Assembly: GCA_964650405.1 (NCBI GenBank) | Contig: CAZYTO010000002.1 | Location: 5,164-69,163, forward strand | Source of the DNA: an uncultured Thermoanaerobaculia bacterium | GTDB lineage: Bacteria; Acidobacteriota; Thermoanaerobaculia; Gp7-AA8 | Reading direction: 5' to 3' | Length of the DNA: 64,000 nucleotides | In this document: positions 1 to 53,801 of the stretch, piece after piece | How the letters are laid out: each line of letters begins with the position of its first letter | Numbering within the stretch: the first letter of the stretch is position 1 | Made by a program: the position numbers and the translations under genes | Notes under the pieces: generated by a model | Told to the model about the DNA's origin: nothing | The model's input: the letters and a program-made list of their open reading frames with translations, nothing else | Databases searched by the model: none

Positions 1-2
1 TG

Positions 3-1001
3 ATGGTCATCCCGGCGGCGCGCCGCAACAACAACTTCTCCGTGGTCGCCGACGCAGGGCCGTCGTACTTCGTCAAGAGCATGCTGCCCGGCGCGGCCCA
101 GGCGCAGGAGACGCTCCGGCAGGAGGCGACGCTCTACGGCATCGCCCGCGCGACGGAGGCGCTCGCGCCGCTGCGCGAGGTGCTTCCGGAGTATCACCTC
201 TACGATCCGCAGCGCAGTCTCATTATCCTCGGCTATCTGCGCGGGTCCCGTACGTTGAGCGAGCTGCACGCGCAGAGCGGCGGCGCTCCCGAATGGGCGG
301 CCGAGCTGACCGGCCGGGCCCTCGGCGCGGTGCACCGGGCCGGCGCGTCGGCGCTGCCGGGCCTCGATCCGGCGTCGTTCAAGCGCCAGACGCCATGGGC
401 TCTGTCTCTGCACCAGATCACGCCGACCTTCGGCCAGCCGGGCTCGCAGTTGCAGACGCTCCTGCTCAGCTATCCCGAGTTCGGCGAAGCGCTCGACACC
501 ATGCGCAACGGCTGGCGCGTCAACAGCGTCATCCACGGCGACATGAAGTTCGACAACTGCCTGGCCGTCGAAGCCGGCGGCACGCGCACGCTGAAGATCA
601 TCGACTGGGAGCTGGCCGACCTCGGTGACGAGCTGTGGGACGTGGCCGGCATCGTCCAGAACTACCTCTTCTGGTCCGCAGTCTCGGCGCAAGCCACGGC
701 CGACGGCGCCTGGAGCGTCGGCATGCCGTTCGAGACGCTCCTGCCCGCCATGCGCACGTTCTGGAATGCGTGGGTCGCCGCGCGGGAGCTGCCGGACGCC
801 GAGGCGGGAGTCTCGCTCGAGCGGTGCGCCTCGTATGCCGCGGCGCGGCTGCTCCAGAGCACGATGGAGATGCTCATGGTGTCGCCGGCCATGTCGCAGC
901 AGGTCGCGCTCCTGCTGCAGACGAGCCTCAACGTCCTGCGCAGTCCGGGCGCGACGGCGCGGATGATCGCAGCCGGCACGGAGGCCGGTGCGCATGCCTG
1001 A
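3..1001 (+). CDS. kinase-fold phosphotransferase (APH/protein-kinase-like), candidate Ser/Thr kinase of a split lanthipeptide-synthetase-like trio; 5' end may lie upstream of the window
   Basis: Catalytic-loop motif HGDMKFDNC and IDWELADLGD in the ORF-track protein; stop overlaps the next ORF (ATGCCTGA at 994-1001). Confidence 0.6.
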   Translation: MVIPAARRNNNFSVVADAGPSYFVKSMLPGAAQAQETLRQEATLYGIARATEALAPLREVLPEYHLYDPQRSLIILGYLRGSRTLSELHAQSGGAPEWAAELTGRALGAVHRAGASALPGLDPASFKRQTPWALSLHQITPTFGQPGSQLQTLLLSYPEFGEALDTMRNGWRVNSVIHGDMKFDNCLAVEAGGTRTLKIIDWELADLGDELWDVAGIVQNYLFWSAVSAQATADGAWSVGMPFETLLPAMRTFWNAWVAARELPDAEAGVSLERCASYAAARLLQSTMEMLMVSPAMSQQVALLLQTSLNVLRSPGATARMIAAGTEAGAHA

Positions 1002-1977
1002 GACGGCCTGCGTCGACGAGATCCGCCAGGCGCTCGGCTCGGTGGTGATCCGCTCGCCGGGAGAGCTCCTCATCGACGGAGAGCTCTGCCGCGTTCCTGA
1101 CCCGATCGTGCTGTTCCAGATGAACGCGGCGGCCTTCGCCTCGTCGCCGATGCTGGCCCTCCTGCAGACCCAGATGTATGCGCGCCTCTACGGGCGCAAT
1201 GCCGCGCCGACGACTCCCGGCGAAGACCTCACGCCCGTGCTCACCGCCGCAAATCGCGGCCGGGAGCGGTGGGAAGAGGGATGGATCGTCAGCAGCGGTG
1301 TGGCGGGGGGGATGCTCACCGCCACGCGTGACGACCTCACCACGAACCTACTGCCCTCGCAATACGTGATGCCTGCCGGCGGGACCGTCACGCCGGGAAC
1401 GAGCCTCACGGTGCTCATCGCGAAGGAGGCGCCTGGGTGGCAGCCCGGCTTCTACTACGCCCTCAGCGAGGTCCCCATCGACGTACGCGATGAATCGCGC
1501 ATGATGCGCATCTACTGGCACATCACCGAGGAGGGCGCGCCGAAGCTCGTGACGGCGGTGTCGGAGGTGCTGAACGCCTTCCGCATCCCGTTCCGCTTCA
1601 AGGTGCTCAACCAGCGGGGACTCTTCGGCCGGGCCGACGCGGCGGTGATCTTCACGGCGCGGCGCTGGTACGGCATCGTGCGGGAGCTGCTGCCGCGCAT
1701 CCTCGAACGCGTGGCGGACTCGCTGCTCGACGCGACGCCGCTCATGGCTTGCCGCATCGCTCCCGGCGTTGCGCTGGCCGAAGACCCCGGTATGGCCGGC
1801 GACAGCTTCGGCACGCATCGCACGCGGCTTCTGGCCCTCGCCGTCTGGAACAGCTACACGAAGGGCTTGCAGGACGTCGAGGCGCGGATGGGGGCGCTGG
1901 AGGAGATCTTCCGCGCCAGCGGTCTCCGCGTGGACAAGCCGTACCTCAATCCCGGATCGGCGGATCTTTATGCGTGA
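988..1977 (+). CDS. HopA1-effector-like protein, candidate phospho-Ser/Thr lyase; alternative ATG start at 994
   Basis: 329-aa ORF between the kinase and LanC genes with overlapping stop/start on both sides; motifs MRIYWHI, FRFKVLN, GRADAAVIF recalled from HopA1-family proteins (not searched). Confidence 0.45.
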   Translation: MRMPETACVDEIRQALGSVVIRSPGELLIDGELCRVPDPIVLFQMNAAAFASSPMLALLQTQMYARLYGRNAAPTTPGEDLTPVLTAANRGRERWEEGWIVSSGVAGGMLTATRDDLTTNLLPSQYVMPAGGTVTPGTSLTVLIAKEAPGWQPGFYYALSEVPIDVRDESRMMRIYWHITEEGAPKLVTAVSEVLNAFRIPFRFKVLNQRGLFGRADAAVIFTARRWYGIVRELLPRILERVADSLLDATPLMACRIAPGVALAEDPGMAGDSFGTHRTRLLALAVWNSYTKGLQDVEARMGALEEIFRASGLRVDKPYLNPGSADLYA

Positions 1978-3211
1978 GCTCTACGGCGACGTCGCCCAGC
2001 GCATCGCCGCGGCGCTCTGCCGCGATGCCATCCGCAACGGCGACCACTGCAACTGGCTCGGCGACTCGATGGAGAGTCTCGACGGCCGCATGGTGAGCGT
2101 CCATCGGTCGTTCGGCGGAGATCTGTACGCCGGCACGTCGGGCATCGCCCTGTTTCTCGCCGAGGCGGACCGGTTCCGCCCCGATCCTCTCTTCCGCCGG
2201 ACGGCACGCGCCGCCATCGAGCACGCCCTGCATCGGGCGGACGCGATCGCGCCCGACCTGCGCGCCGGCTTCTACACCGGAGGCACCGGCATCGGCTTCG
2301 CCGCCGCGCGGATCGGCGAGCTGTTCGACGATGCGACGCTCGTCGAGCGCGGGCTGGCACTTTTCGAGAGCGCCTCGGCCATCGATGAGAACGCGCGCCT
2401 CGACCTGCTGGCCGGCGTGGCCGGGATCATCGGACCGCTGCTTGTGCTGCATGCGAAATACCGGCGTGACTGGATGCACGAGCGCGCGCTCCGGGCCGGC
2501 GACGTGCTGCTCGGCCGGGCCCGGACTTCGCCGCAGGGCGTGTCCTGGAACGTGCTCGACGAGCAGTGGACGACGGCCGACCTCACGGGCTACTCGCACG
2601 GAACGGCGGGAATCGCGCTGGCCCTGTTCGAGCTCGCGCATGCCACGGGCGAGCAGCGGTTCGTCGCGGCGGTGGAGGGGGCGCTTCAGTACGAGCGGGC
2701 ATGCTTCTCCCCGCAGCAGCAGAACTGGCCCGACTTCCGCCGCACCAGCGCGGGCTCGGCCAGCTCCGTGGGCTACTCGCTGGGCTGGTGTCACGGCGCG
2801 CCGGGCATCGGCCTGAGCCGGCTGCGTCTCTACAAACTCGCACCGCGGCCGGACCTCTTCGAAGACGCGGCGGCCGCCCTGCGTGGAACCTACACGCCGC
2901 TGGCCACGCTGACCCCGACGGCGATGTTCGCGCTCTGCCACGGCGCGGCGGGGAACGCCGAATTGTTCCTCGAAGCAGGAGCGGTCTTCGGCGACTCCGG
3001 CTACACGGACATCGCCGAGGCCATCGGCCGGCAGGGCATCGAGCGCTATGACGAGCCGCGGAGACCGTGGCCTTCGGGTGTGACCGCCGGCGGCCAGACG
3101 CCCGGCCTGATGCTGGGACTGGCCGGCATCGGCTACTTCTACCTCCGCCTGCTCGCATATGCCGACGTGCCGTCGGTGCTCGTGGTGGCGCCGGCGCGAA
3201 CGCTATCGTGA
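1970..3211 (+). CDS. LanC-like lanthionine cyclase
   Basis: LanC signatures SHGTAGIALAL, GWCHGAPGIG, LCHGAAGN (His base and Cys/Cys-His zinc ligands); ATG 1970 overlaps the upstream stop (ATGCGTGA); the track start at 1769 would overlap 200 nt and is rejected. Confidence 0.85.
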   Translation: MRELYGDVAQRIAAALCRDAIRNGDHCNWLGDSMESLDGRMVSVHRSFGGDLYAGTSGIALFLAEADRFRPDPLFRRTARAAIEHALHRADAIAPDLRAGFYTGGTGIGFAAARIGELFDDATLVERGLALFESASAIDENARLDLLAGVAGIIGPLLVLHAKYRRDWMHERALRAGDVLLGRARTSPQGVSWNVLDEQWTTADLTGYSHGTAGIALALFELAHATGEQRFVAAVEGALQYERACFSPQQQNWPDFRRTSAGSASSVGYSLGWCHGAPGIGLSRLRLYKLAPRPDLFEDAAAALRGTYTPLATLTPTAMFALCHGAAGNAELFLEAGAVFGDSGYTDIAEAIGRQGIERYDEPRRPWPSGVTAGGQTPGLMLGLAGIGYFYLRLLAYADVPSVLVVAPARTLS

Positions 3212-3223
3212 TATCATCCCGTC

Positions 3224-3472
3224 ATGGCGCAACTCGTAGTTCGACAGTTGGATGATGCCGTCAAGGATAAGCTGCAGCGTAGGGCTCGCCGTCACGGTCG
3301 CAGCACGGAGGAAGAGGTCCGCGAGATTCTTCGCAATGCAGTCAGGAGCGAAGAGAACATCCGCGAGCCCCTCGGCTCTCGCATCGCTGCTCGTTTCCGT
3401 CGCATCGGCCTGCATGAAGATATCCCCGAGTTGCGCGGTCATTCTGTAGAGCCCGCGGTGTTTGAGCCGTGA
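3224..3472 (+). CDS. vapB: VapB/FitA-like ribbon-helix-helix antitoxin
   Basis: 82 aa, N-terminus MAQLVVRQLDDAVKDKLQRRARRHGRSTEEEVREIL typical of FitA/Arc-type antitoxins; 4-nt overlap with the PIN gene. Confidence 0.8.
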   Translation: MAQLVVRQLDDAVKDKLQRRARRHGRSTEEEVREILRNAVRSEENIREPLGSRIAARFRRIGLHEDIPELRGHSVEPAVFEP

Positions 3473-3888
3473 TCCTTCTCGACACGAATGTGCTATCGGC
3501 TCTCATGCGCGCCAACCTGGACGCGGACGTCGTGGCATGGCTCGATACGCAGCCGGCGGAATCCATCTGGACGACGTCGATTACCGTTTTCGAAGTGCGC
3601 TTCGGACTGGAGCGTCTCGCCTCGGGACGACGGCGGAAATCGCTGGAGGAGGCATTCGATCGAGTGCTCGCGGAAGACTTCGAGGATCGTGTCGTGCCTT
3701 TCGACGAAGCAGCCGCCCAATCCGCGGGGCGAATCGCAGCGGAACGGCGAAGACTAGGGCGGCCCGTCGAAATTCGGGACGTGCAGATTGCCGGTATCGC
3801 ACTCGCACGCCGTGCGACGATCGCTACGCGTAACGTTCGTCACTTCCAGGGACTCGGGCCTGCCGTAGTTGATCCCTGGTCCGCGTGA
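3469..3888 (+). CDS. vapC: PIN-domain ribonuclease toxin VapC
   Basis: MILLDTNVLSAL N-terminus with conserved acidic residues; 139 aa; coupled to the upstream antitoxin. Confidence 0.85.
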   Translation: MILLDTNVLSALMRANLDADVVAWLDTQPAESIWTTSITVFEVRFGLERLASGRRRKSLEEAFDRVLAEDFEDRVVPFDEAAAQSAGRIAAERRRLGRPVEIRDVQIAGIALARRATIATRNVRHFQGLGPAVVDPWSA

Positions 3889-4373: not shown

Positions 4374-5678
4374 ATGCGAGTCAAGATCATCGGCGCCGGT
4401 TTGGCCGGCTCGGAATGCGCGTTCGGGCTGGCGCGGCGCGGGCATCGCGTCGAGCTGCACGAGATGCGGCCGGTGAAGACCACGCCCGCGCACCAGACCA
4501 CGAACCTTGCGGAGCTGGTCTGCTCGAATTCGTTCCGCTCCAGCGCGGCCGCGAACGCCGTAGGCCTGCTGAAGGCGGAGATGAAGCTGATGCAGTCGCT
4601 GGTCATTCGCTGCGGGGAGGCGGCGCGGGTGCCGGCGGGCGATGCCTTCGCCGTGGACCGCGAGCGCTTCTCGGCCGCCGTGACCGAGGCCATCGGGAAC
4701 GAGCCGAACATCACACTGCGGCGCGACGAGGTGACGAACCTCGACCGCGGCCATGCGGACTTTCTCGTCGGGGCGACCGGGCCGCTCACGTCGCAGCCGC
4801 TTTTCGAAGCGATCAACGAGTTCCTCGGCCGCGACGGTCTGTACTTCTACGACGCCATCGCCCCGATTCTGGCCGCCGACTCGCTCGATCTCTCGAAGCT
4901 CTACTGGAAGTCGCGTTATGGCAAGGGAGACGGCAGCGATTACCTCAATGCAGCCATGACCCAGGAGCAGTACGAGGCTTTCGTGGCCGCGCTCCTCGGT
5001 GCGGAGCTCTATCCGCTGCACGACTTCGAGCAGGCAGTGCACTTCGAAGGCTGCCTGCCGGTGGAAGAGATCGCCTCGCGCGGCATCGAGACGCTGCGCT
5101 TCGGTCCCATGAAGCCGGTCGGGCTCGAGCACCCCGTCACGGGCGAGCGCCCGCACGCCGTCGTGCAGCTCCGCAAGGAAGACCTGTCGGACGAGTACTT
5201 CAACCTCGTCGGGTTCCAGACCAAGATGAAGGTCCCCGAACAGAAGCGCGTCATCCGGATGATTCCGGGCCTGGAGCAGGCCGAGCTGGCGCGCTTCGGT
5301 TCCATGCACCGCAATACCTTCATCAATGGGCCGCGGCACCTGCGCAACACGTTCCAGACGAAGCGCGACGAGCGGATCTTCTTCGCCGGCCAGATCACGG
5401 GCGTGGAAGGCTATGTCGAGTCGAGTGCCGTCGGACTGCTCGTGGCGCGCTACATTGATGAGCTCTCCCGTCACGGCGCCGCTCACCCCCTGCCGTACCA
5501 CACGGCCCTCGGTGCGCTCGGCCGTCACGTGGCGGAGTCGTCGCCCGACCGCTATCAGCCCTCGAACGTGACATGGGCGATGATCGAAGACGTCGTCGGC
5601 CGGGTGAAGAAGATCGAGAAGCGCGAGCGCCAGGCGGCCAAGGCGCTGGACGCGATCGGTCTGCTCGGAACGCGGTAA
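4374..5678 (+). CDS. trmFO: methylenetetrahydrofolate--tRNA-(uracil-5-)-methyltransferase TrmFO
   Basis: MRVKIIGAGLAGSECAF FAD-binding N-terminus, FFAGQITGVEGYVESSAVG near the C-terminus; start at internal ATG 4374. Confidence 0.9.
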   Translation: MRVKIIGAGLAGSECAFGLARRGHRVELHEMRPVKTTPAHQTTNLAELVCSNSFRSSAAANAVGLLKAEMKLMQSLVIRCGEAARVPAGDAFAVDRERFSAAVTEAIGNEPNITLRRDEVTNLDRGHADFLVGATGPLTSQPLFEAINEFLGRDGLYFYDAIAPILAADSLDLSKLYWKSRYGKGDGSDYLNAAMTQEQYEAFVAALLGAELYPLHDFEQAVHFEGCLPVEEIASRGIETLRFGPMKPVGLEHPVTGERPHAVVQLRKEDLSDEYFNLVGFQTKMKVPEQKRVIRMIPGLEQAELARFGSMHRNTFINGPRHLRNTFQTKRDERIFFAGQITGVEGYVESSAVGLLVARYIDELSRHGAAHPLPYHTALGALGRHVAESSPDRYQPSNVTWAMIEDVVGRVKKIEKRERQAAKALDAIGLLGTR

Positions 5679-5698
5679 AGACGGCCGGGCGCGACCGG

Positions 5699-6487
5699 TC
5701 ACGCCGCGAACGACACCACGGCCAGCGCGCCGTAGGCGATCTCGCGCCACCCGATCGTCTTCGCCAGCGGTGCCTCGTGCGTCGCTCCCCACACGGCGCG
5801 CGCGAAGAGCACGACGCAGGCCGCGACGGCGGGCGGCGAGGCGATGGCGATTGCGATGCCGATGGCCGCCGCGTGGAGCCCGAGCGACAGAACTTTCGAG
5901 CCGCGGCCGAGCAGCGAGCGGACGAAGAGAATCGACGGGATGCTGCGCAAGAGGATGAGCGTCATCGCCGTTGCGGCGATGGGCAGCGACCGCCCGGCCG
6001 CGAGCGGAATGGCCGCGGCGATGCTGGCCATGGCCACGGCGCCGGCGATCTCCGGAACCGCGCCGCGGCTGCAGTTCCGCGCGTCGTACACGAGCATCAG
6101 CACCGCGAGTGGGGAGACGGCTGCGAACGGGATCACGAAGCGCCAGTCTCCCCTCGCCAGCGCCGCCATGAAGCTGAGCGCCGCGAGCGCCGCGTAGGTG
6201 GCCGCGAAGAGTCGGCACCAGGACGTCCGCGGGTAGGAGTGCCTGCGAAGTGCGTCCTGCAAGGCCAGCTTGAGGGGCTGGCGGGCCAGGAAGGCAAAGA
6301 GCGTGGCAAGGGCGATCATCACGCCAGCCATCGACGACGCCACGAGCAGGCCGAGGGCGACCGGCTCGAGCAGGATCCCCCAGCCTCCGTGCTCCGAGGG
6401 GAGCGCGAGCGGCCGGAGCTTCAGCGACTCACTGCGCGCAAAGGCTTCCACGGCGGCCTTCTCCCTGGTCCTGGTTCGGATGTTCAT
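5699..6487 (-). CDS. YwiC-like polytopic membrane protein
   Basis: 262 aa, several TM helices, EHGGWGILLEP motif near the N-terminus; divergent from the Crp/Fnr gene. Confidence 0.5.
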   Translation of the reverse strand: MNIRTRTREKAAVEAFARSESLKLRPLALPSEHGGWGILLEPVALGLLVASSMAGVMIALATLFAFLARQPLKLALQDALRRHSYPRTSWCRLFAATYAALAALSFMAALARGDWRFVIPFAAVSPLAVLMLVYDARNCSRGAVPEIAGAVAMASIAAAIPLAAGRSLPIAATAMTLILLRSIPSILFVRSLLGRGSKVLSLGLHAAAIGIAIAIASPPAVAACVVLFARAVWGATHEAPLAKTIGWREIAYGALAVVSFAA

Positions 6488-6561
6488 CTCGGTCTTTCAC
6501 GCTCGAATCTAGAAGCGGAGGTCATGGCGAGCCATGATTTCTGTCATAAGCTCCCGCAGAA

Positions 6562-7245
6562 ATGGCCATCGCGCCGGTCATTCCGTTCAACGCGATTCCG
6601 ATCTTCGCCACGTTGCGGAAGGAAGACCGCGACGCCCTCATCCCGCTCTGCCGGCTGCGGGCGTACGAGAAGGGCGACGTCATCTTTCAGGAGGGGGATC
6701 CCGCCGATCGAATCCACTTCATCGTCACCGGCCGCGTGAAGATCGTGAAGGCCGCTGGCGCCCGCGACGTGATCATCGAGATCCTCGGCGACGGCGAACC
6801 GGTGGGGGCCGTGGCGGTGTTCGAGCGCCGGCCCTTCCCTGCCGCCGCAGTGGCCATCGAGCCGTCCAGCATCCTCTCCATTCCGGAGCGGGAGTTCTTC
6901 GTCCTCCTCGAGACCCGGCCCGAGATGACCCGCCACCTGCTGTCCGGCTTGACGCTGCGCCTCATCCAGCTCAACAAGCGCCTGGCGGACATGACCGGCT
7001 CCGCCGAGCACCGCGCCGCGCGTCTGTTTCTCACCCTCGCCGACCGCGCCGGTGTCCCGCGCGAGCGGGGAACCTTCATCCCCCTCCCCATCTCCCGCCA
7101 GGAGATCGCCGATCTGATCGGGACGACCCTCGAGACCGCCATCCGCCTCATGAGCCGCTGGCAGAAAGACGAGCTCGTGCTGACCGAGAAGACCGGATTC
7201 GTCATTCCGAGCACCGAAGCGTTGCGGAATGTGGCGGCCGAGTAG
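6562..7245 (+). CDS. Crp/Fnr-family transcriptional regulator
   Basis: cNMP-binding-like N-terminal domain (FQEGDPADRIHFIVTGRVKI) and C-terminal HTH (SRQEIADLIGTTLETAIRLM). Confidence 0.85.
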   Translation: MAIAPVIPFNAIPIFATLRKEDRDALIPLCRLRAYEKGDVIFQEGDPADRIHFIVTGRVKIVKAAGARDVIIEILGDGEPVGAVAVFERRPFPAAAVAIEPSSILSIPEREFFVLLETRPEMTRHLLSGLTLRLIQLNKRLADMTGSAEHRAARLFLTLADRAGVPRERGTFIPLPISRQEIADLIGTTLETAIRLMSRWQKDELVLTEKTGFVIPSTEALRNVAAE

Positions 7246-7249
7246 ATAG

Positions 7250-7309
7250 GCGTCCGGAGCGCCAGTTTCCCAGCCGGCTTGGCCCAGCGGCATCCTGGCG
7301 CCCGGACGC
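7250..7309 (+). terminator. GC-rich hairpin downstream of the crp-like gene (no U tract)
   Basis: GCGTCCGGAGCGCCAG (7250-7265) pairs with CTGGCGCCCGGACGC (7295-7309): 15 bp with one bulge and a 29-nt loop. Confidence 0.35.
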
Positions 7310-7803
7310 GCAACACTGCCGCATCGTGAAACCGAGCCCGGCCGTGCGAAACCCGTAAAGTTTGTGAGGAGCCTGACCGGGACCTGCCTATTCGGACGGG
7401 GCTTCGGGAAGGTACCCGGGTCTAACTTGTTATGGTTTAGCTCCGGGCGATACCGGCGTGCCGCTGCCTGGCAATTACGGACTCGGGGCCATTCGGCAAT
7501 TCACGGCGCCGCCTCAACCGACCAGAAGGGGCGGAGCATCCGGACTCGTTGTCCCATCCGTCTGCCGGTGCAGACCAAATCACGGCTCGTCGCTGAATGG
7601 AGCGCCCTCGATTGGTTGTCTCCGGGCTCGATTCTCTCAACGGTTCTCTCAACAGGGGGAGGCGAGTTGAGGGAAACGAGGGTCCGAATGTCGATCTACG
7701 GGTTGTAGAAACGACGATAAGAGGGCGGCGTATCCAAACCGCTCGTTTTTCGTAACGTCACTCCAGTCTCTCTGTCGGGCAGTATGTTGCGAGGTCGGAT
7801 GCG

Positions 7804-8934
7804 ATGAAAACTAAGAATCTGTTTGTCACACTGGCGATCGTGGTCGTGTTCATCGCGGCCATCGCCTCCTTCAAGATCTTCCAGATCAAGGCCGCCATGG
7901 CCCAGCAGATGTCGTTTCAGCCGCCCCCCGAGGCGGTGACGACGGTCGTAGCGAGAGAGGAGGAGTGGAACAGCTCCCTCCACGCCATCGGCACGGTCGA
8001 GGCCGTCAACGGCGTCACTGTCAGCGCGGACCTTCCGGGGATCGTCCACGAGATCCTCTTCGACTCCGGCCGCTCCGTTGAAAAGGGCGACGTCCTGGTC
8101 CGGCTCGATACGCGGGAAGAGACGGCGCAGCTCACCGCCGCCGAAGCGCAGCGCGAGGCGTCGCGCCTCGACCTCGTGCGCACGGAAGCCATGCTGGCCA
8201 ACGGCGTCGCGCCGAAAGCGACGTACGACAGCATCGCCGCGCAATACAAGCAGGCCGACGCCCATGTGGGCGAGATCAAGGCAACGATCGAGCGCAAGAC
8301 CATCCATGCACCGTTCAGCGGCGTGCTCGGCATCCGGCAGGTCAACGTCGGCCAGTACCTCGCCGGCGGCGCGCCCATCGTGTCGCTCCAGGCCCTCCGT
8401 CCCGCGTACGTCAACTTCAACGTCCCGCAGCAGCAGCTCGGGCACCTGGCCACCGGCTCGACCGTCGAAGTGACCTCCGATGCCCTGCCGGCCAGCGAAA
8501 AGGGACGTGTCACGGCGCTCGACTCGATCGTGGATGTAGCGACCCGCAACATCCGCGTCCAGGCGGAATTCGGGAACGCTTCGGGCAGGCTTCGCCCCGG
8601 CATGTTCGTCGAGACGCAGCTCGCCCAGGGAGCGCGGCAGTCCGTCATTCCGCTGCCCGCCTCCGCCATCAGCTACGCCCCGTTCGGCGACTCCGTGTTC
8701 ATCGTCGAGCAGGTCAGCGATCCGAAGACGCACAAGACCTATCGCGGCGTGCGCCAGCAGTTCGTGAAGCTGGGCGGCGCGCGCGGCGACCAGGTCGCCG
8801 TCCTGACCGGAGTGAAGCCGGGTGAGGAGATCGTCACGTCCGGCGTGTTCAAACTGCGCCCGGGTGCGGCGGTCGACGTCAACAACACCGTCACGCCGTC
8901 CAACAGCACGTCCCCGAAACCGGAAGACAGCTAG
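7804..8934 (+). CDS. RND efflux periplasmic adaptor (membrane fusion protein)
   Basis: N-terminal TM, coiled-coil hairpin and beta-barrel segments typical of the HlyD/AcrA family; directly upstream of the RND pump. Confidence 0.85.
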   Translation: MKTKNLFVTLAIVVVFIAAIASFKIFQIKAAMAQQMSFQPPPEAVTTVVAREEEWNSSLHAIGTVEAVNGVTVSADLPGIVHEILFDSGRSVEKGDVLVRLDTREETAQLTAAEAQREASRLDLVRTEAMLANGVAPKATYDSIAAQYKQADAHVGEIKATIERKTIHAPFSGVLGIRQVNVGQYLAGGAPIVSLQALRPAYVNFNVPQQQLGHLATGSTVEVTSDALPASEKGRVTALDSIVDVATRNIRVQAEFGNASGRLRPGMFVETQLAQGARQSVIPLPASAISYAPFGDSVFIVEQVSDPKTHKTYRGVRQQFVKLGGARGDQVAVLTGVKPGEEIVTSGVFKLRPGAAVDVNNTVTPSNSTSPKPEDS

Positions 8935-12197: not shown

Positions 12198-12793
12198 CTC
12201 GTCCGGGTCGTAACCACTCTCCGCACGAACAGCCACACGCCGCCGCCCGCCGCGGCCCACGGCAAGGCGGAGAGCACGATCGACACTACGCTCCAGGCCG
12301 CAAAGGCCAGGAGGTCTCGCGGAGAGGCCGGCGTTCCATCGCCCGGTATGGAGAGTGTCTCCCGCAGGGCGCCAACGGTGAGATCGAGCAATTCTTCCCG
12401 AAACTCGCCCGCGTAGAGGTTGCGGCTGTGACGCCCTCGCACGAAGGCCCGGAAGACGCGGAGCGGCGCCAGGGCCAGCCCGATCGCCAGGGCTCCGAAG
12501 TTGAGGAACCATGCCGGGTAGTGGCGCCCGCAACCGGAGGCGATCTCCCACGCCCCGATCTCCGCTTCGCCCGTCCACGTCGTGCCGTACCCCGTCAGGA
12601 CGTGGTGGAGGTCATGGAGCCTCACCGCCCGGACTCTGGCCGCCGTGTTCGGAAACCGGAGGGTGAACGGTCCGGCCTTCAGTCTCACCCACCGGTCCCC
12701 GTAGCCTCCATCCAGCGGGAACCCCGATGCCGCGAAGTACTCCGCGCGGGCTTGCCGCAGGGAAAATGCCGCGTCATGCAAAGGCATGCTCAA
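12191..12793 (-). CDS. membrane-associated protein with Coq4-type zinc motif
   Basis: HDLHH-x11-E matches the HDxxH-(x)11-E signature of Coq4; hydrophobic C-terminal half. Confidence 0.5.
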   Translation of the reverse strand: MSMPLHDAAFSLRQARAEYFAASGFPLDGGYGDRWVRLKAGPFTLRFPNTAARVRAVRLHDLHHVLTGYGTTWTGEAEIGAWEIASGCGRHYPAWFLNFGALAIGLALAPLRVFRAFVRGRHSRNLYAGEFREELLDLTVGALRETLSIPGDGTPASPRDLLAFAAWSVVSIVLSALPWAAAGGGVWLFVRRVVTTRTSR

Positions 12794-12820
12794 CTCGACG
12801 TCTCAGCGCCGCTCATCGTT

Positions 12821-13153
12821 TCAGGTGTTCGGCGTCACCACCACGGCCGTCCCGTAGCACAGGACCTCCGTGACTCCTTCCATCACTTCCGTGGCGTCGT
12901 ACCGCACGGCCACTACGGCGTTCGCACCCAACTGCGCTGCGTGCTGGAGCATGAGCGAGAACGCCTCGGAGCGCGTCTTCTCGCAGAGCTCGGTCAGCAG
13001 CGTGATGTCGCCGCCGACGAGCGTCTGGAGCTTCGCGCCGATCGTTCCGAACACCGATCGCGACCGCACGGTAATGCCGCGGACGACGCCAAGGTTGTTG
13101 ATGATTCGCAGGTTGGGAAGCTCTGTGGCCGTCGTCGTTGCTCGAATGTCCAT
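12821..13153 (-). CDS. YbjQ/UPF0145-family protein
   Basis: 110 aa; [13 protein letters not shown]...[11 protein letters not shown] typical of the YbjQ family. Confidence 0.8.
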
Positions 13154-13173
13154 CGTTTCTTTCTCCTCGCCTC

Positions 13174-13653
13174 TTACTTTTGGATGATGACCGTGGATTG
13201 CTGCGCGACCGCCTGCCAGCGCCCGTCCCGTTTCACCAGCACCGTGATGACGCGACGGCTGCTGCTGATGTCCTGCCCGTTGCGTTGCGCGCCGACGGTG
13301 GACCGGTACGTGTCCACGGCCGTGGTGCCGTAGACGTGGATGCTCTCGTCGTCACGGGTGTACTTCTCGATCTTGAGCTCGCCCGAGCGCAGCAGGGCCA
13401 GGCGTTGGTCGCGCGTGAGCAGGGCGCCGGCCGGGTTGACGAACGTGTATTCCGGTGCCCACAGTTTGGTCAGCGCGTCGGCGTCATTGCGGCCGAGGGC
13501 TGCGGTGATCTCGTCTTCCACTTGCCGGATGGCCTGCTCGTCGGCCGCCGCGCCGGCGGGTGTCGCGCCGTGCACGGCAAGGGGCGACAGGCCGGCGATG
13601 GCGACGGCGACGGCGACCGTAGAAAGGAGCACGCTGCGAAGAAGTTTCATCAT
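13174..13653 (-). CDS. secreted SnoaL-like/DUF4440 (NTF2-fold) protein
   Basis: Signal peptide [21 protein letters not shown]; only the last 159 codons of the 351-aa track ORF look coding. Confidence 0.6.
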
Positions 13654-13684
13654 GGGTTCGTCCTCGTTTCTGCCTTCTGCCTTC

Positions 13685-14038
13685 TTACTTCTGACCTTGC
13701 GCGCGGAGGTTGCGGTACCAGCCGCCCGTGAGCACGAAGCGCGGGAAGGTGATCCACTGCTCGGCCAGGATGCGGCTGACGGCGTCGCCCGCGCCGAGGA
13801 ACGGCTCCGGCTGAGAGGGCTCCCGGCGATGGCCGAGTCCCTGGACGGCGAAGGCGAGCAGCAGCACGACGGCGGCCGCGCCGGCCAGCGCGAGCCGCCA
13901 CGTCGCCAAGGCCGCCAGCAGGGCCAGGGTCGCCAGCTCGAACAGAGGGACGGCCACGATGTGCACGAGGAGGTTGACCCGGTCCTGATGTTTCGTCGCG
14001 TAGTCGGACCACTGCCAGCGGAGCAGATCAGGGCGCAT
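13685..14038 (-). CDS. DUF962/Mpo1-like small membrane protein
   Basis: H-x4-N-x3-H-x4-P pattern (HQDRVNLLVHIVAVP) and two TM helices. Confidence 0.45.
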   Translation of the reverse strand: MRPDLLRWQWSDYATKHQDRVNLLVHIVAVPLFELATLALLAALATWRLALAGAAAVVLLLAFAVQGLGHRREPSQPEPFLGAGDAVSRILAEQWITFPRFVLTGGWYRNLRAQGQK

Positions 14039-14063
14039 GTTGGAATTCTATCCGGCGCAGGAC

Positions 14064-14684
14064 TCAGGGCGTCAGCCAGACCGGTCTCGTTTTGGCCAGC
14101 CACGCTTGCCGTTCGGTCAGGCCGATGTAGCCGCCATTGATGGCCTTCGTCACCTTGCGAACGTCGTCGGCATCGGCGAAGGTGTTGCACTTCGAGGCCA
14201 CCCATTCCGCTGCGGCAATGTGGAGGCACCAGTCGGCGCTGAAGGCCAGGTCAGGGTTGGCGGCCAGGTCGGCGCCGAGCTGCTTGCCGTACTTCTCGTA
14301 CGACTCGCGCCCGGTGATCTGCAGCAGGCCGCGGCCGATGTACTTCCAGCCGTCTCCCGGGTCGACGTTCCCCATCCGCCCGCCGTAGACGCTGTTCGCC
14401 AGCGCCTCAGGGTTGTGGGCAAACGGCTGCGCATCCTCGAGCGTTTTGAACCGGGTTGGCCAGACATCGAGCAGGCGTTCCGCGCGGTAGTTCAGGCTCT
14501 CGGTGGTGATCGTGAACGCTCCGCTCTCATGAAGGATCTGGGCCATGAAGTGCGCCAGGCGGAGTCCGGAGTCGTTGATCCCGTACTGCACCAGTACGGC
14601 ATCGGCCTTCGCAAATCCGTCCCGGTAGTTCGGGAGCATCTTCGGAGCGAGACGCTGGAGCTGGTCCGTGGTGACTGAAATCAT
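14064..14684 (-). CDS. glycoside hydrolase family 19 (chitinase/lysozyme-like)
   Basis: LAHFMAQILHESGAF, GRGLLQITGRESY, TKAINGG motifs; start at internal ATG 14684. Confidence 0.75.
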   Translation of the reverse strand: MISVTTDQLQRLAPKMLPNYRDGFAKADAVLVQYGINDSGLRLAHFMAQILHESGAFTITTESLNYRAERLLDVWPTRFKTLEDAQPFAHNPEALANSVYGGRMGNVDPGDGWKYIGRGLLQITGRESYEKYGKQLGADLAANPDLAFSADWCLHIAAAEWVASKCNTFADADDVRKVTKAINGGYIGLTERQAWLAKTRPVWLTP

Positions 14685-14846
14685 GCGCGGATCATATGTC
14701 CAGCGGTCGTCGTCTCGGCGTCCCCGTGCGAGCCGTCTTCGATCAGCATCGCAACGAGATGGGGAGCGAGTCGATCCACACTCTCCATGTTGAAGAGCTG
14801 GACTGCTCAACCAGCCGGCAGGATGAAGCCGCTGGCCTATGGGCGC

Positions 14847-25690: not shown

Positions 25691-25761
25691 CCAGACCCGT
25701 CCGGTCGTGACGTAAAGAGAATGTGCAATCCGCTTCCGGGGCTCCGTTTTACGATGGCGCC

Positions 25762-26877
25762 ATGAACCTGCCGTTCGCCCCGCCCCTCGCACCGATGCTC
25801 TCCTCGCCGGTCGCGGAGATCCCCTCGGGCGACGGCTGGCTCTTCGAGCCCAAGTGGGATGGTTTCCGCACGCTCGTCTTCCGCGACGGCAGCGAGATCC
25901 TGCTCCAGAGCCGCGACGAGAAGCCGATGAATCGCTACTTCCCGGAGCTGATCGCGCCGCTGCAGGCCACTCTTCCAGAGCGTTGCGTGCTCGACGGCGA
26001 GGTCGTCATCGCCGGCCCGGACGGCCTCGACTTCGAAGCATTGCTCCTGCGCATTCACCCCGCGGCATCGCGCGTGAAGCTGCTGGCGGAGCAGACGCCC
26101 GCGTCTTTCGTGGCGTGGGATCTCCTGGCGCTGGACGATCATGACCTGCGCCAGTCGCCGCTCGAACTGCGTCGCGAAGGGCTAGATATCATCCTGGCGA
26201 AGGCCGAGCCGCCGGTGCATCTTTCGCCCGTGACGCGCGAGAGGCCGGTGGCGGAGGATTGGTTCCGGCGCTTCGAAGGGGCGGGGCTCGACGGCGTCAT
26301 GGCCAAGCGCCTCGACTCGCCGTACCTGGCCGGCGAGCGCACGATGCTGAAGATCAAGCATTCCCGCACGGCCGACTGCGTGGTGGCCGGCTTCCGCTGG
26401 CACAAGAACGGTCCGGGAACGCTGATCGGCTCGCTCCTCCTCGGACTGTATGACCACAAAGGAGCGCTGCATCACGTCGGTGTCACGGCGTCGTTCACGA
26501 CAGCCGTCCGCAGGCAGCTCGCAGAGGAACTGGAGCCGCTGCGCCGAAACGCGCTTGACCACCATCCGTGGCGCCACTGGGCGGAGGCGATGACGGAAGC
26601 GACGGTTGAAGCGGAGGCGAAGGGGCAGCGGATGCCGGGCGGGGCGAGTCGTTGGAACCGCGGCAAGGACCTGAGTTGGGAGCCGCTCCGCATCGAGCGC
26701 GTGGTCGAGGTGGCATTTGACCACATGCAGGGCAGCCGCTTCCGGCATGCTGCACGCTTCGTGCGCTGGCGTCCCGACCGGAAGCCAGAGGATTGCCGCT
26801 ATGACCAGTTGGAAGTAACGCCTCCCTACGAACTGGAGCGCGTCTTCGGTGTTCGCCACGCCAGCCACGGGTCGTAG
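25762..26877 (+). CDS. ATP-dependent DNA ligase (LigD ligase-domain type)
   Basis: Adenylation motif EPKWDGFR plus downstream OB-fold region; internal ATG 25762. Confidence 0.85.
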   Translation: MNLPFAPPLAPMLSSPVAEIPSGDGWLFEPKWDGFRTLVFRDGSEILLQSRDEKPMNRYFPELIAPLQATLPERCVLDGEVVIAGPDGLDFEALLLRIHPAASRVKLLAEQTPASFVAWDLLALDDHDLRQSPLELRREGLDIILAKAEPPVHLSPVTRERPVAEDWFRRFEGAGLDGVMAKRLDSPYLAGERTMLKIKHSRTADCVVAGFRWHKNGPGTLIGSLLLGLYDHKGALHHVGVTASFTTAVRRQLAEELEPLRRNALDHHPWRHWAEAMTEATVEAEAKGQRMPGGASRWNRGKDLSWEPLRIERVVEVAFDHMQGSRFRHAARFVRWRPDRKPEDCRYDQLEVTPPYELERVFGVRHASHGS

Positions 26878-28124
26878 TCGGGATCCGGCGTCTCCTCTGC
26901 GGGGCGTTCGCCTTCGGGGACGTGGCGCAGGTTGATGCGGATGCGGGTCCACGTGCTCGACCGCCCACGCATGGCGTCGATCAGCACGTCGTCGACCTCC
27001 AGCTTGCTCGCGGCCTCGGGGTGGCGGGCCTTCCACCGTTCGAGTCCGGCCAGTGCCTCCTCTTTGTGCTGGGCTTTGGCTACGGTGATGAGCGGCTGCT
27101 TGGACTGGCGTCCCTTCGACTGTCCCTTCTGGCGCGACGGTGCCACGCGGGGCGGCTCGTCTCTCTGTTTCCGATACATGGGAGGCCAGGGCGCATCGCC
27201 CTCGCCCGCCGCCTCCTGGCGGGCGGAGAGCGCGAGCAGCGCTTCGAGCGAGCCGGGGTGCGCGTCGATGCCGGCCGATGCATCGCCGTGCTCCGCGAAG
27301 CGCCGGGGCGCCGTCGCCAGCGTGTAGGCCGCCGGATCGCACTCCGCGACCTCGTCCCAGGCCAGCGGCATCGAGACGCGCGCGTCCGGTAATGGCCGCA
27401 CGGACCACGCCGAGGCGACGGTGCGGTCCTTCGCGTTCTGGTTGTAGTCGAGGAAGACGCCGTGGCGCTCCTCCTTCCACCACTTGCTCGTGGCGATGTC
27501 CGGGGCGCGCCGCTCCACTTCGCGGGCCAGGGCCAACGCGGCGCGCCGCACCTGGTCGAAGCTCCAGCGCCGCGCGACGCGTACGTTGATGTGAATGCCG
27601 CGCGATCCCGACGTCTTCGGCCAGCCCTGCAGTTCATGCTCTTCGAGGACATCCCGGACGACCAGCGCCACGCGCCGGACGTCGTCGAAGCTCACGCCGG
27701 GGCCGGGATCGAGGTCGACGCGCAGCTCGTCCGGATGATCGAGGTCATCGGCGCGCACAGGATGCGGATTCAGATCGATGCAGCCGAGGTTCACGATCCA
27801 GAGCAACTGCGCCGCGTCGCGGACGACGACCTCGCTGGCTGTGCGGCCGGAGGGGAACTTCAGCTCGACGGTCTCGATCCACTCCGGATGCTGCTCGGGC
27901 GCGCGCTTCTGGAAGAACGGCTCATGGTCCGCCCCGTTCACGTAGCGCTTCAGCACGACAGGCCGCGCCGCGATGCCCCGCAACGCTCCGTCCGCCACGG
28001 CGGCGTAGTAGTTCACCAGGTCGAGCTTCGTGTACCCGGCCTGGGGAAAGAAGACCTTCTCCGGATTGGTGATGACGACCTCACGGCCCGCGGCTTCGAC
28101 GATGGTCTGCGGCGACTTGGGCAT
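26826..28124 (-). CDS. LigD-type primase-polymerase domain protein (NHEJ polymerase)
   Basis: VITNPEKVFFP, LDLNPHP, KTSGSRGIHI motifs; start ATG 28124, just after the moaE stop. Confidence 0.8.
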   Translation of the reverse strand: MPKSPQTIVEAAGREVVITNPEKVFFPQAGYTKLDLVNYYAAVADGALRGIAARPVVLKRYVNGADHEPFFQKRAPEQHPEWIETVELKFPSGRTASEVVVRDAAQLLWIVNLGCIDLNPHPVRADDLDHPDELRVDLDPGPGVSFDDVRRVALVVRDVLEEHELQGWPKTSGSRGIHINVRVARRWSFDQVRRAALALAREVERRAPDIATSKWWKEERHGVFLDYNQNAKDRTVASAWSVRPLPDARVSMPLAWDEVAECDPAAYTLATAPRRFAEHGDASAGIDAHPGSLEALLALSARQEAAGEGDAPWPPMYRKQRDEPPRVAPSRQKGQSKGRQSKQPLITVAKAQHKEEALAGLERWKARHPEAASKLEVDDVLIDAMRGRSSTWTRIRINLRHVPEGERPAEETPDPDYDPWLAWRTPKTRSSS

Positions 28125-28131
28125 GACGTGC

Positions 28132-28554
28132 TCAGGACGCGGACTGCTGCCACCCCACCCACTCTTCACCGTCGGGGCCGCGCTCCTTCTTCCAGATGGG
28201 AACGCTCTTCTTGATCTCGTCGATGACCATGCGGCATGCACTAAACGCCTCGGCGCGGTGGGGGGAGGTACAGACGATGGCGATAGAAGTGTCGCCGACG
28301 TGCAGGAGGCCGAGGCGGTGCTGGACGGCGATGGCGACCGTGGGGTACTTCGCGGCAGTGGCGTCGACGACGCGGCCGATCTCTTTCTCGGCCATGGGGT
28401 GGTAGGCCTCGTAGGTGATCGACTCGACACGCTTCCCTTCGTGATGATCGCGGACGATTCCCTCGAAAACGACGCTGGCGCCGTCGCTTGGACGCAGCAC
28501 GTCGCGGGTCAGGGCCGCGACATCGATCACGGCGTCCGTGAGATAGCGCGTCAT
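28132..28554 (-). CDS. moaE: molybdopterin synthase catalytic subunit MoaE
   Basis: VVFEGIVRDHHEGKRV ... SPHRAEAF ... PIWKKE motifs. Confidence 0.85.
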   Translation of the reverse strand: MTRYLTDAVIDVAALTRDVLRPSDGASVVFEGIVRDHHEGKRVESITYEAYHPMAEKEIGRVVDATAAKYPTVAIAVQHRLGLLHVGDTSIAIVCTSPHRAEAFSACRMVIDEIKKSVPIWKKERGPDGEEWVGWQQSAS

Positions 28555-33827: not shown

Positions 33828-35726
33828 TCACAGAATCTGCCGCACGTCCCCGACCCGCTTCGTCACGCCTTCACGGTCGAGCCACTCCAGCAGAGGGATG
33901 GCGATCTTCCGGGAGAGGCCGAAAAAGTCCTTGAACTGTCCGACGTCCATCGTCGTCCCCTTGCGGGCCTGCATGCGCTCGCGGGCCGCGGCCAGTGCGT
34001 CCGGGTGGACATAGATGCCCTCCGCCAGGCGCACGAGCTTTCCCTGTTTCACGAGAAAGCTGATGACGCCTTCGATGACCTTCGGCCTCTGCGTGCGCTC
34101 GTTGATCAGCTCGGAGACCGGCGGCGGTGCGAGAGCGGCCGCAGCGAAGCGCCCTTCGATCATCCGTGCCAGTTCTCCCTCCGCGCCGCCCAGCGTCTTC
34201 GAGCGGCCGGGGATGTCGAGGGCGTCGCCGGAGACGGCGATGATCTTTTCCCGCGCCAGGTCCTGGAGGAGGAAGTTGACGAGCTGGCCGTCCGCGCCCC
34301 GCGGCAAGAGCTTCTGCACAAACTCGCCCTTCGGTACGTTGACGGCGATCTTGTTCTTCTCGAAGTACCGCATGAGGAAGTCCATCGACCGCTTGCGGAA
34401 GTCGGCCAGCACGTCGTGATGGATCCAGCGCCGGTCGCCGGCGTCGGCGACGTGGGGAAGGTTCTTCAGCTCCTTCGTCAGCGTCTCGACGCGGATGCCG
34501 GTGCGGGCCTGCACTTCGCGGATGGTCAGGCCGCGCAGCCCTTCCAGCCGCGCCGTCAGCTCCACCCGTTCCGGGAGGGAGCCGGCAGCGAGCGTCTGGA
34601 GGAGCTCGCCGCGGGTGCCGCGGCTCAGCTTGGGAAGGTGGGCATCGAGAATCATGCCGCCGCCGATGGTGAACGCAGGCGAGTAGCGGCGGATGACGAA
34701 CCGGTCGCCGGCCACGGCCACGACGGGCGACTCGAGGCGGATCTGGACGAAGGCGCTCTGGCCCGCCTTCAGCTCGGCGGTCTCGTCGATGAAGCGGACC
34801 GTGCCGAGGAGCTCCGAGGCGAGGTGGTGGAAGCGGATGCGCGTCTGCTCCTTCAACGGCTTCACGTTTCCGGCGTCGTCCGCCAGCAGATCGAGCCTCG
34901 CCGTGATGACCGATGACGTGCGCAGGGTGTTCGGCGGGACGAGCTGCTGCCCGCGGTGGAGGCGGTCGAGCGGGATGTCGGCGAGATTGATCGACGTCCG
35001 CTCGCCCGCGGAGACCGCGTCGCGCGCCTCTCCGTGGACCTGGACGTTACGAGCCCGGCTGCGATCGCCGCCGGGCAGCACTTCGACGTCGCTCTCCACG
35101 CTCACCCTCCCCGAGTACGTCGTCCCGGTGACGACCGAGCCGAAGCCCTTCATCGTGAAGACGCGGTCGATGGGCATGCGGAAGACGCGCGTGGTGGCGT
35201 CGCGATCGTCCACCTGGGAGACCGACTGCAGGATCGCCGCGCGCAGCGCGTCGAGTCCCGCGCCCGTCACACTGCTCACCGATACGATCGGCTTGCCGGC
35301 CAGGAAGCTGCCGGCCACCATCTCCTCGACCTCCAGCCGCACCAGTTCCAGGATGTCGTCTTCCACGAGATCGCGCTTGGTGATGGCCACCAAACCGGTA
35401 GGGATGCCGAGAAGCCTGCAGATGGCGAAATGCTCCCGCGTCTGCGGTTTGATCGACTCGTCGGCGGCAACGACCAGCAGCGCGCTGTCGATCCCGCCGA
35501 TGCCCGCCAGCATGTTCTTCACGAAACGCTCATGGCCCGGCACGTCGATGAAGCCGATCTGGTAGTCGTCGGTGAACCAGCTCGCGAAGCCGAGGTCGAT
35601 GGTGATGCCGCGCTTCTTCTCCTCGGGGAGACGATCCGTGTCGACACCGGTCAACGCGCGCACGAGCGCCGTCTTGCCATGATCGATGTGGCCGGCGGTT
35701 CCGACGATGCGTTTGCGGCGAGCCAT
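33828..35726 (-). CDS. selB: selenocysteine-specific translation elongation factor SelB
   Basis: GTPase motifs GHIDHGKT, DVPGHERF, TKRD, plus C-terminal winged-helix repeats; 632 aa. Confidence 0.9.
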   Translation of the reverse strand: MARRKRIVGTAGHIDHGKTALVRALTGVDTDRLPEEKKRGITIDLGFASWFTDDYQIGFIDVPGHERFVKNMLAGIGGIDSALLVVAADESIKPQTREHFAICRLLGIPTGLVAITKRDLVEDDILELVRLEVEEMVAGSFLAGKPIVSVSSVTGAGLDALRAAILQSVSQVDDRDATTRVFRMPIDRVFTMKGFGSVVTGTTYSGRVSVESDVEVLPGGDRSRARNVQVHGEARDAVSAGERTSINLADIPLDRLHRGQQLVPPNTLRTSSVITARLDLLADDAGNVKPLKEQTRIRFHHLASELLGTVRFIDETAELKAGQSAFVQIRLESPVVAVAGDRFVIRRYSPAFTIGGGMILDAHLPKLSRGTRGELLQTLAAGSLPERVELTARLEGLRGLTIREVQARTGIRVETLTKELKNLPHVADAGDRRWIHHDVLADFRKRSMDFLMRYFEKNKIAVNVPKGEFVQKLLPRGADGQLVNFLLQDLAREKIIAVSGDALDIPGRSKTLGGAEGELARMIEGRFAAAALAPPPVSELINERTQRPKVIEGVISFLVKQGKLVRLAEGIYVHPDALAAARERMQARKGTTMDVGQFKDFFGLSRKIAIPLLEWLDREGVTKRVGDVRQIL

Positions 35727-49026: not shown

Positions 49027-49029
49027 GGC

Positions 49030-52470: not shown

Positions 52471-52481
52471 GGCTGCTCCCC

Positions 52482-53672: not shown

Positions 53673-53801
53673 AGGACACACCTCCACCGTTCGGTCCGAA
53701 AACCGCATCGATACTTTTCTTTTGTGCAAACCGTCTTTGCTGAAAACGGGTTGCCGGGACCCCCAGTGAATGACCGCCGGCGTCGACGAAACCGTTCAAA
53801 C

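Follow-up and report, generated by a model that had tools for sequence, protein, structure and literature searches.

The closest described counterparts of the system presented here are the lanthipeptide synthetases of class V. Class Va systems consist of LanK, LanY, LanX and LanD and have no LanC (PMC12291118, PMC12328550). In class Vb, LanK and LanY are combined with a LanC, an arrangement characterised for SmoA in Streptomyces, where SmoC directs ring formation (Pei et al., JACS 2022, doi 10.1021/jacs.2c06808, as reported in PMC12291118 and PMC12328550). Short peptides are the substrates of the characterised class Va and Vb systems. PDB entry 9DK1 is the lexapeptide dehydratase, for which a stable LxmK-LxmY heterodimer is documented. 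An association of HopA1 with LanC outside Actinobacteria was already noted in 2021, in a survey that described a large HopA1 group with discrete or fused LanC, for which precursors were often not found and larger proteins were suggested as targets (Eyles et al., Chem Sci 2021; PMC8153245). This study concerns a 64,000-nucleotide stretch of DNA (the window) from an uncultured Thermoanaerobaculia bacterium (Acidobacteriota; contig CAZYTO010000002.1), the first part of which encodes an APH-fold kinase, a HopA1-family protein and a LanC. With fairly high confidence, positions 1–3211 are taken to hold the 3′ portion of an operon for a lanthionine synthetase of class Vb type. It lies on a high-GC chromosome, probably that of a bacterium living in soil, and its product is probably a protein heavily cross-linked by thioethers.

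The region contains three open reading frames (ORFs) on the plus strand (3–1001, 994–1977 and 1970–3211; Table 1), all with a strong coding signature (GC content at third codon positions, GC3, of 0.88–0.92). The 327-aa and 413-aa products of ORF2 and ORF3 are identical end to end to two proteins predicted on an NCBI contig (69,545 nt), which fixes their ATG starts; that of ORF2 lies at 994, with a GTG at 988 as an alternative start. The kinases of close relatives are 358–361 aa long, and because Met1 of the window kinase aligns with Met32 of the kinase at one related locus (L085; L numbers denote related loci throughout), approximately 30 N-terminal codons of ORF1 are missing. The original prediction, made without database searches, pointed to overlapping stop and start signals at both gene junctions and quoted motifs from each protein. 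Both overlaps read as claimed, and all of the motifs were found (HGDMKFDNC, IDWELADLGD, MRIYWHI, FRFKVLN, GRADAAVIF, SHGTAGIA, GWCHGAPG and LCHGAAGN). Overlaps of 8 nt and 4 nt also occur in relatives. The 8-nt overlaps favor co-translation in fixed proportion and, as overlaps recur in relatives and the gene order is kept in most related loci, the arrangement is conserved rather than a product of chance. No second copies of the trio genes were found elsewhere in the window.

Profile searches with all three proteins agree with the families proposed from these motifs. ORF1 matches the Pfam family APH (PF01636, 4.9e-13); its best NCBIfam model is LxmK (67 bits, against an equivalog cut-off of 315) and its best PDB match is LxmK (9dk1_A, 2e-6), which upholds the kinase fold. 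The match of ORF2 is to HopA1 (PF17914, 2.5e-28), and its best PDB sequence match is LxmY (9dk1_B, 1.1e-8), so that ORF1 and ORF2 match the two chains of a single PDB entry. An AlphaFold2 model of ORF2 (predicted local distance difference test score 90.7) likewise has LxmY as its top Foldseek match (E 5e-20, template modeling score 0.66; 23% identity in the structural alignment); HopA1 effectors, the lyase domains of LanKC enzymes and OspF rank below it. The HopA1-family assignment, which the original prediction had made from family motifs, is thus upheld by sequence and by modelled structure. ORF3 matches LANC_like (PF05147, 1.2e-57). It matches the NCBIfam LanM model at positions 551–930 only, which is the cyclase part (260 bits, cut-off 304), and its PDB matches are headed by the LicM2 cyclase domain (2.4e-24), followed by LanCL1 and LanCL2 (1e-7 to 1e-8).

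Residues expected to serve the predicted activities are retained in each protein, apart from one Tyr of the lyase (Table 1). In the stand-alone kinase, K25, E41, H178, D180, N185 and D201 are invariant among 71 homologues. The three LanC signatures of the stand-alone cyclase all align with the corresponding LicM2 and LanCL motifs, and in this alignment the Cys-Cys-His zinc site of ORF3 is intact, as is its His base (H210, C274, C323 and H324, 98–100% conserved). In ORF2, R172, K203 and R213 are 100% conserved among 61 homologues with a spacing of 31 and 10 residues; by this spacing, and not by direct alignment, they and F220 are equated with R187, K219, R229 and Y236 of CaoY. Arg187, Lys219 and Arg229 of CaoY have been found by mutagenesis to matter (PMC9486802).

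Families, catalytic residues, common orientation and overlapping genes together support placing the trio in class Vb, as a new member at some distance from the characterised ones. The original prediction had called it class V-type. This stands for the kinase and HopA1 protein, which match LxmK and LxmY; canonical class V (Va) systems, however, are without LanC, and the combination is that of class Vb. With the SmoA/SmoC system the window genes share the stand-alone families PF01636, PF17914 and PF05147, the same predicted chemistry and the lack of LanD and aminovinyl-cysteine machinery. They are set apart from it, by description rather than by alignment with SmoK, SmoY and SmoC, by an Acidobacteriota background in place of Streptomyces. 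Two further differences lie in their relatives, whose substrates appear to be repeat proteins of 550–1,280 aa instead of a short leader and core peptide, and in the clade of the window (the window clade), where a second LanC gene and one for a pseudokinase-like protein are also present. The LxmK-LxmY and CaoK-CaoY pairs of class Va (lexapeptide and cacaoidin; PDB entries 9DK1-3) resemble the window proteins in the lyase Arg/Lys/Arg and the kinase motifs, and in adjacent, probably co-translated genes that would fit a heterodimer. In contrast, class Va has LanX and LanD, makes aminovinyl-methylcysteine and has no LanC, whereas the window trio has a zinc LanC, and a Phe for Tyr in the lyase. Neither the window nor the clusters of relatives showed a gene resembling LanD.

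The combination of lyase, kinase and cyclase also recalls class IV LanL and class III LanKC, and the LanC domain of LanL is likewise of the zinc type. In lyase fold there is a distant kinship, seen in Foldseek matches of ORF2 (E about 1e-2) to OspF and to the lyase domains of ThurKC, SalKC and CuvL. Unlike those enzymes, the window system is made of three separate proteins, with a kinase of APH type rather than a Ser/Thr protein kinase and a lyase of HopA1 rather than OspF type. The NCBIfam LanL model matches ORF3 only (136 bits, cut-off 650), and LanM, the class II model, matches only the cyclase part of ORF3, with no fused N-terminal dehydratase. The clade described by Eyles et al. has the same composition of phosphotransferase, HopA1 and discrete or fused LanC outside Actinobacteria; that survey, however, searched for short peptides with RiPPER, and giant Thr/Cys repeat proteins and the N-terminal domain described below were not reported in it (PMC8153245).

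Related loci were collected with a 13-sequence alignment as query against one genome per species, giving 80 loci, to which eight were added by scanning JGI metagenomes for a degenerate DNA pattern. Gene content was read by homology-anchored stop-to-stop ORF analysis. In 74 of these 88 loci the genes for kinase, HopA1 protein and LanC follow one another in this order without interruption. The loci belong mostly to Acidobacteriota (Thermoanaerobaculia) and to about ten phyla overall, with representatives in Gemmatimonadota, Planctomycetota, Chloroflexota, Actinomycetota, Myxococcota, Proteobacteria, Cyanobacteria, Eremiobacterota, Rokubacteria and one Thermoplasmatota archaeon. The non-actinomycete background that the original prediction had considered unusual is therefore no rarity, the trio being common in Acidobacteriota and present in many other phyla. 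The archaeal trio (L078, 8499–11826) lies on a contig assigned to a metagenome-assembled genome, and was either acquired by archaea horizontally or misplaced in binning. At L017, a first trio is immediately followed by a second ORF with the leader-like N-terminal domain (7374–8198) and the start of a second kinase gene (8273–8809), which suggests tandem duplicated systems within one Thermoanaerobaculia genome.

A complete HMMER search over 1.84 billion representative sequences returned 2,695 proteins related to ORF2, and for 517 the E-value is 1e-30 or lower. They include several HopA1-LanC fusion proteins in which the order of domains from N- to C-terminus is that of the genes, giving Rosetta-stone support for a functional link between lyase and cyclase. 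Seven such fusions (P0159, P0168, P0195, P0222, P0227, P0236 and P0246) are 491–1,193 aa long. Pfam covers only part of the LanC model in P0195, P0222, P0236 and P0246, and P0227 carries approximately 430 additional C-terminal residues with no Pfam match.

The original prediction had stated that no Ser/Thr/Cys-rich precursor ORF lies within 1–3223, and indeed no Cys-rich ORF with a coding signature was found there or in the rest of the window. The genes upstream of the kinase were compared in relatives, in the 73 loci where 1.5 kb or more of sequence precedes it, counting ORFs on the same strand that end less than 700 nt before the kinase. A Cys-dense ORF, or one with a particular N-terminal domain, directly precedes the kinase in 56 loci. 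These ORFs span 70–1,282 codons from stop to stop and contain 8–17% Cys, with a median Thr/Cys ratio of 1.19 (86/86 in L033 and 137/141 in L019) and much less Ser. They are built from repeats, the units of which include PTLxGxTCPxxxC (L001/L002), CTQxGPQCPxT (L003-L020), TCGGxTxCGG (L022-L033) and TCAxTCAx (L061), and the type of repeat tracks the enzyme clade. An N-terminal domain of approximately 95 aa, with the consensus ...LxGYxGxSxxxGxxRLYxDxxLxxYxEIxxxDIxH.E...VWV..., is placed ahead of the Cys/Thr-rich repeats in 33 upstream ORFs from at least eight phyla. It is probably a recognition ("leader") domain for the kinase-lyase pair. Neither Pfam nor NCBIfam has a model for the repeat proteins or for this domain. 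Its carriers include L003 (6855–7200), L019, L038, L041, L044, L061, L063 and L080, with 25 others.

In the window clade, the trio enzymes of which are 65–76% identical to those of the window, the N-terminal domain is absent and the upstream protein is of a different kind. All seven members with upstream sequence (L082, L083, L084, L085, L088, L089 and L090) carry a PTxCPP protein; an eighth, L086, has only 54 nt upstream and lies outside the comparison. The protein is 549–910 aa long and contains 59–82 copies of the heptad x-P-T-x-C-P-P, with one Thr and one Cys in each. The main Cys-Cys spacing is accordingly 7, Thr occupies position −2 of 80–90% of the Cys residues, Pro makes up 20–28% of the sequence, and Thr and Cys occur at approximately 1.1–1.2:1. 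The N-terminus is short and acidic, without a hydrophobic signal segment. The reading frame is supported by GC3 values of 0.79–0.90, by a surplus of third-position differences between homologues and by independent JGI and ENA calls; on these grounds, and on that of the in-frame fusion to the N-terminal domain in other clades, antisense or out-of-frame artefacts were rejected as an explanation. Opposite the substrate gene of L085 (513–2162), a 450-aa open frame with "GGHCVG" repeats runs on the minus strand (896–2248). A frame of this length could easily lead gene callers to pick the wrong strand or to skip the heptad gene, and the JGI annotation lists only a 60-aa fragment at this place. With the L085 heptad protein as query, the only matches were uninformative ones of low complexity, to Pro/Thr linkers of unrelated proteins (dockerin, GEVED and similar).

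Upstream of the heptad gene, five members of the clade (L082, L083, L084, L088 and L089) have a complete second LanC, 47% identical to ORF3 and with intact zinc ligands. L085 shows just the C-terminal end of this protein at the contig edge, and the sequence of L090 stops short of it. The second LanC is preceded by a pseudokinase-like APH protein, X, without the ATP-binding Lys and the Asn of the catalytic loop, which recalls the kinase-fold LanX cyclases and is possibly LanX-like. The full order of the cluster is X-C2-A-K-Y-C1 (X-C2 at 4345–6551 in L082, 2–1824 in L083 and about 2459–4601 in L089, and also present in L088). X, the second LanC and the repeat gene span approximately 4.6–5.2 kb and would just fit the 5.5 kb of the source contig outside the window. 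By synteny, the substrate gene of the window system would lie immediately upstream of its kinase. The original prediction had guessed at an upstream substrate, and this fits the Thr/Cys-rich gene found before the kinase in each close relative. That these genes encode the substrates is itself concluded from synteny and from their roughly 1:1 Thr:Cys composition.

Homology to characterised LanK, LanY and LanC proteins makes the following the best-supported reading of the roles of the trio. The APH-fold kinase (LanK) would use ATP to phosphorylate Thr or Ser residues of a ribosomal substrate. The HopA1 lyase (LanY), probably in a heterodimer with the kinase like that of LxmK and LxmY, would then β-eliminate the phosphate to give dehydrobutyrine or dehydroalanine, and the zinc-dependent LanC would activate Cys thiolates for Michael addition, closing (methyl)lanthionine thioether rings. 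For the window, the expected substrate has 550–900 residues, no signal peptide and approximately 60–80 x-P-T-x-C-P-P heptads, and its likely product would be a protein-sized polymer with dozens of methyllanthionine cross-links, rigid and protease-resistant. The chances are judged about even that the operon makes no peptide antibiotic and that it instead produces a poly-methyllanthionine "ladder" protein from a repeat protein of 550–1,300 residues, with one Thr and one Cys per 4–8 residues and up to approximately 140 such pairs. This would be a thioether-cross-linked biopolymer, a product class not yet described, widespread in Acidobacteriota and occurring in about ten phyla, with substrates that carry either the N-terminal recognition domain or, in the window clade, heptads on which two LanCs and a pseudokinase act.

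A conventional class V lanthipeptide cluster, making a secreted antimicrobial from a 40–100-aa leader and core, or one in which the giant repeats are multi-core precursors cut into many small lanthipeptides, is considered unlikely. Such a cluster would be in line with the short peptides of the characterised systems, and some related loci, such as L035-L037 and L043 of Acidobacteriaceae, do have only upstream ORFs of 60–200 aa with the N-terminal domain. The longer modules of proteins of the L019 type resemble repeated cores, and a gene of the S9 prolyl-oligopeptidase family stands right after lanC in L085. However, no close relative with upstream sequence has a short precursor in place of the heptad protein, the heptads run contiguously without recognisable cleavage sites, and among the neighbors of the operon, in the window and in relatives, there is no conserved gene for a dedicated exporter (ABC exporters included), a leader protease or immunity. 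This last absence is the reason why a structural or protective protein is favored, speculatively, over a secreted antibiotic.

The enzymes by themselves represent known chemistry, and the importance of the system comes from the gene context in relatives, where the same three enzymes are consistently paired with proteins of 300–1,280 residues that consist in essence of arrayed Thr/Cys pairs. Described lanthipeptide precursors have from a few tens to about a hundred residues and are not known to form more than around ten rings. If the repeat proteins undergo the predicted modification, lanthionine formation also builds large, densely cross-linked proteins, and the border between natural products of the RiPP type (peptides made by ribosomes and modified after translation) and protein post-translational modification becomes blurred. 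It would further explain the "orphan" HopA1-LanC systems without precursors in genome mining, where giant substrates would be missed because the tools are tuned to short peptides, and it would make available enzymes that process dozens of sites on one chain. The full-text literature searched, which left subscription-only papers outside, described neither giant Thr/Cys repeat substrates nor the conserved N-terminal domain.

Several points weigh against the interpretation of the window operon as an active class Vb-type system with a giant substrate. ORF2 has no match to any LxmY-type NCBIfam model and ORF1 scores well below the LxmK cut-off, which makes both distant relatives of the characterised enzymes. 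Position 220 of the lyase is Tyr in 47 and Phe in 14 of the 61 homologues, Phe being found in the window and its entire clade. SpvC Tyr158, the equivalent of CaoY Tyr236, takes part in α-proton abstraction (PMC9486802), so that catalysis may be altered where Phe220 replaces it. From this it could be argued that the system of the window clade is catalytically impaired or repurposed, a relic or a mere binding scaffold. Such a loss of function is held to be very improbable, since R172, K203, R213 and all catalytic residues of the kinase and LanC are intact, the genes of the clade show high GC3, strong mutual identity and no frameshifts, and the substrate genes are kept and often expanded. The clade with Phe220 coincides with the one that has heptad substrates, the second LanC and the pseudokinase-like gene.

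Other points on the same side concern the substrate. An obvious adjacent substrate is missing from 17 of the 73 loci, mostly in Gemmatimonadota, Planctomycetota and Proteobacteria; for the window locus, the giant substrate is a matter of synteny; and the heptads may be compatible with two ring topologies, from Thr i to Cys i+2 or from Cys to the Thr of the next heptad. Loci without a visible substrate, the window among them, could mean that the trio acts in trans on cellular proteins. Kinase and lyase would then create dehydroamino acids on the targets, to which LanC would add a small thiol, much as glutathione is added by eukaryotic LanCL, or which it would cross-link, in the service of regulation or damage control and not of making a dedicated product. 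ORF3 is indeed also related to the glutathione transferases LanCL1/2, and the 2021 survey suggested that HopA1/LanC groups without precursors may modify larger proteins (PMC8153245). ORF3 is, however, far closer to LicM2 than to LanCL, as the E-values and LanM score above indicate, and in the window clade a dedicated protein with nearly balanced Thr and Cys always lies upstream, of a repeat type that follows the enzyme clade. Action in trans is thus regarded as a slim possibility. The original prediction had itself raised the option that the trio modifies proteins rather than a RiPP; this came closer to the truth than expected in that the substrates of relatives are protein-sized, whereas the dedicated repeat proteins upstream disfavor the trans action.

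Table 1. Features of the window discussed in the text, with positions, strand and basis of assignment
Feature	Positions	Strand	Basis or remark
lanK-like kinase gene (ORF1), APH fold, 5′-truncated by window edge	1..1001 (frame from base 3)	+	Pfam, NCBIfam and PDB matches
ATP-binding Lys25 (YFVK)	75..77	+	100% conserved, 71 homologues
Kinase Glu41 (RQE)	123-125	+	100% conserved, 71 homologues
Kinase catalytic loop H178-G-D180-x4-N185	534..557	+	H178, D180 and N185 100% conserved (71 homologues); aligns with LxmK loop
Mg-binding D201-W-E (DFG equivalent)	603..611	+	D201, W202 and E203 100% conserved (71 homologues)
Overlap of lanK stop and lanY start, ATGCCTGA, 8 nt	994..1001	+	Read from sequence; equal 8-nt overlap in L082
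lanY-like phospho-Ser/Thr lyase gene (ORF2), 327 aa	994..1977	+	Pfam HopA1; PDB and Foldseek LxmY
Lyase catalytic positions R172 (1507-1509), K203 (1600-1602), R213 (1630-1632), F220 (1651-1653)	1507..1653	+	Residue spacing compared with CaoY
Overlap of lanY stop and lanC start, ATGCGTGA, 8 nt	1970..1977	+	Read from sequence
lanC zinc-dependent lanthionine cyclase gene (ORF3), 413 aa	1970..3211	+	Pfam, NCBIfam and PDB matches
LanC general acid/base His210 (SHGTAGIA)	2597..2599	+	Aligns with LicM2 SHGLTGIA; 98% conserved, 68 homologues
LanC zinc ligand Cys274, then His275 (WCHGAPG)	2789..2794	+	Aligns with WCHGAPG of LicM2/LanCL; Cys274 100% conserved
LanC zinc ligands Cys323, His324 (LCHGAAGN)	2936..2941	+	Aligns with LicM2 LCHGLIGN and LanCL ICHGTAGN; 100% conserved
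FitA-like ribbon-helix-helix antitoxin gene	3224-3472		Starts 13 nt after lanC stop
PIN-domain toxin gene	3469-3888		4-nt overlap with antitoxin gene

The genes downstream of lanC are not conserved. In the window they are the FitA/PIN pair, DUF3467 and TrmFO, and in relatives they encode a PAD-domain protein, a GT4 glycosyltransferase or an S9 peptidase. The S9 prolyl-oligopeptidase-family gene follows lanC in L085 at 5660–7588 and might have a part in processing the Pro-rich substrate; in L082 the corresponding place is taken by a gene with a PAD (peptidyl-arginine deiminase) domain (12581–14770). The closeness of the toxin-antitoxin genes to the lanC stop might place the trio in an anti-phage defence or toxin-antitoxin island. 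This is given almost no weight, as the pair is absent beside the trio in relatives and the surrounding window is ordinary chromosome, with genes for PolA, GlyQS, SelB, PPDK, LigD and RND efflux. Searched against PADLOC-DB 2.0, none of the three proteins gave a match at E ≤ 1.

Some further features of the window were noted. A gene for SelB, the selenocysteine-specific elongation factor, lies on the minus strand (33828–35726), so that selenoprotein synthesis is probable in this organism; when the window was scanned for tRNAs and Rfam families, no matches were obtained, to tRNA-Sec or any other tRNA. The gene for an ATP-dependent DNA ligase (25723–26877, plus strand) is convergent with that for a LigD primase-polymerase (26826–28430, minus strand), with a slight overlap as called, a pair of the type acting in non-homologous end-joining repair. 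At 47977–53729 on the minus strand, three consecutive ORFs of 349, 1,154 and 415 aa, with GC3 of 0.85–0.90 and no Pfam match at 1e-5, may form an uncharacterised operon.

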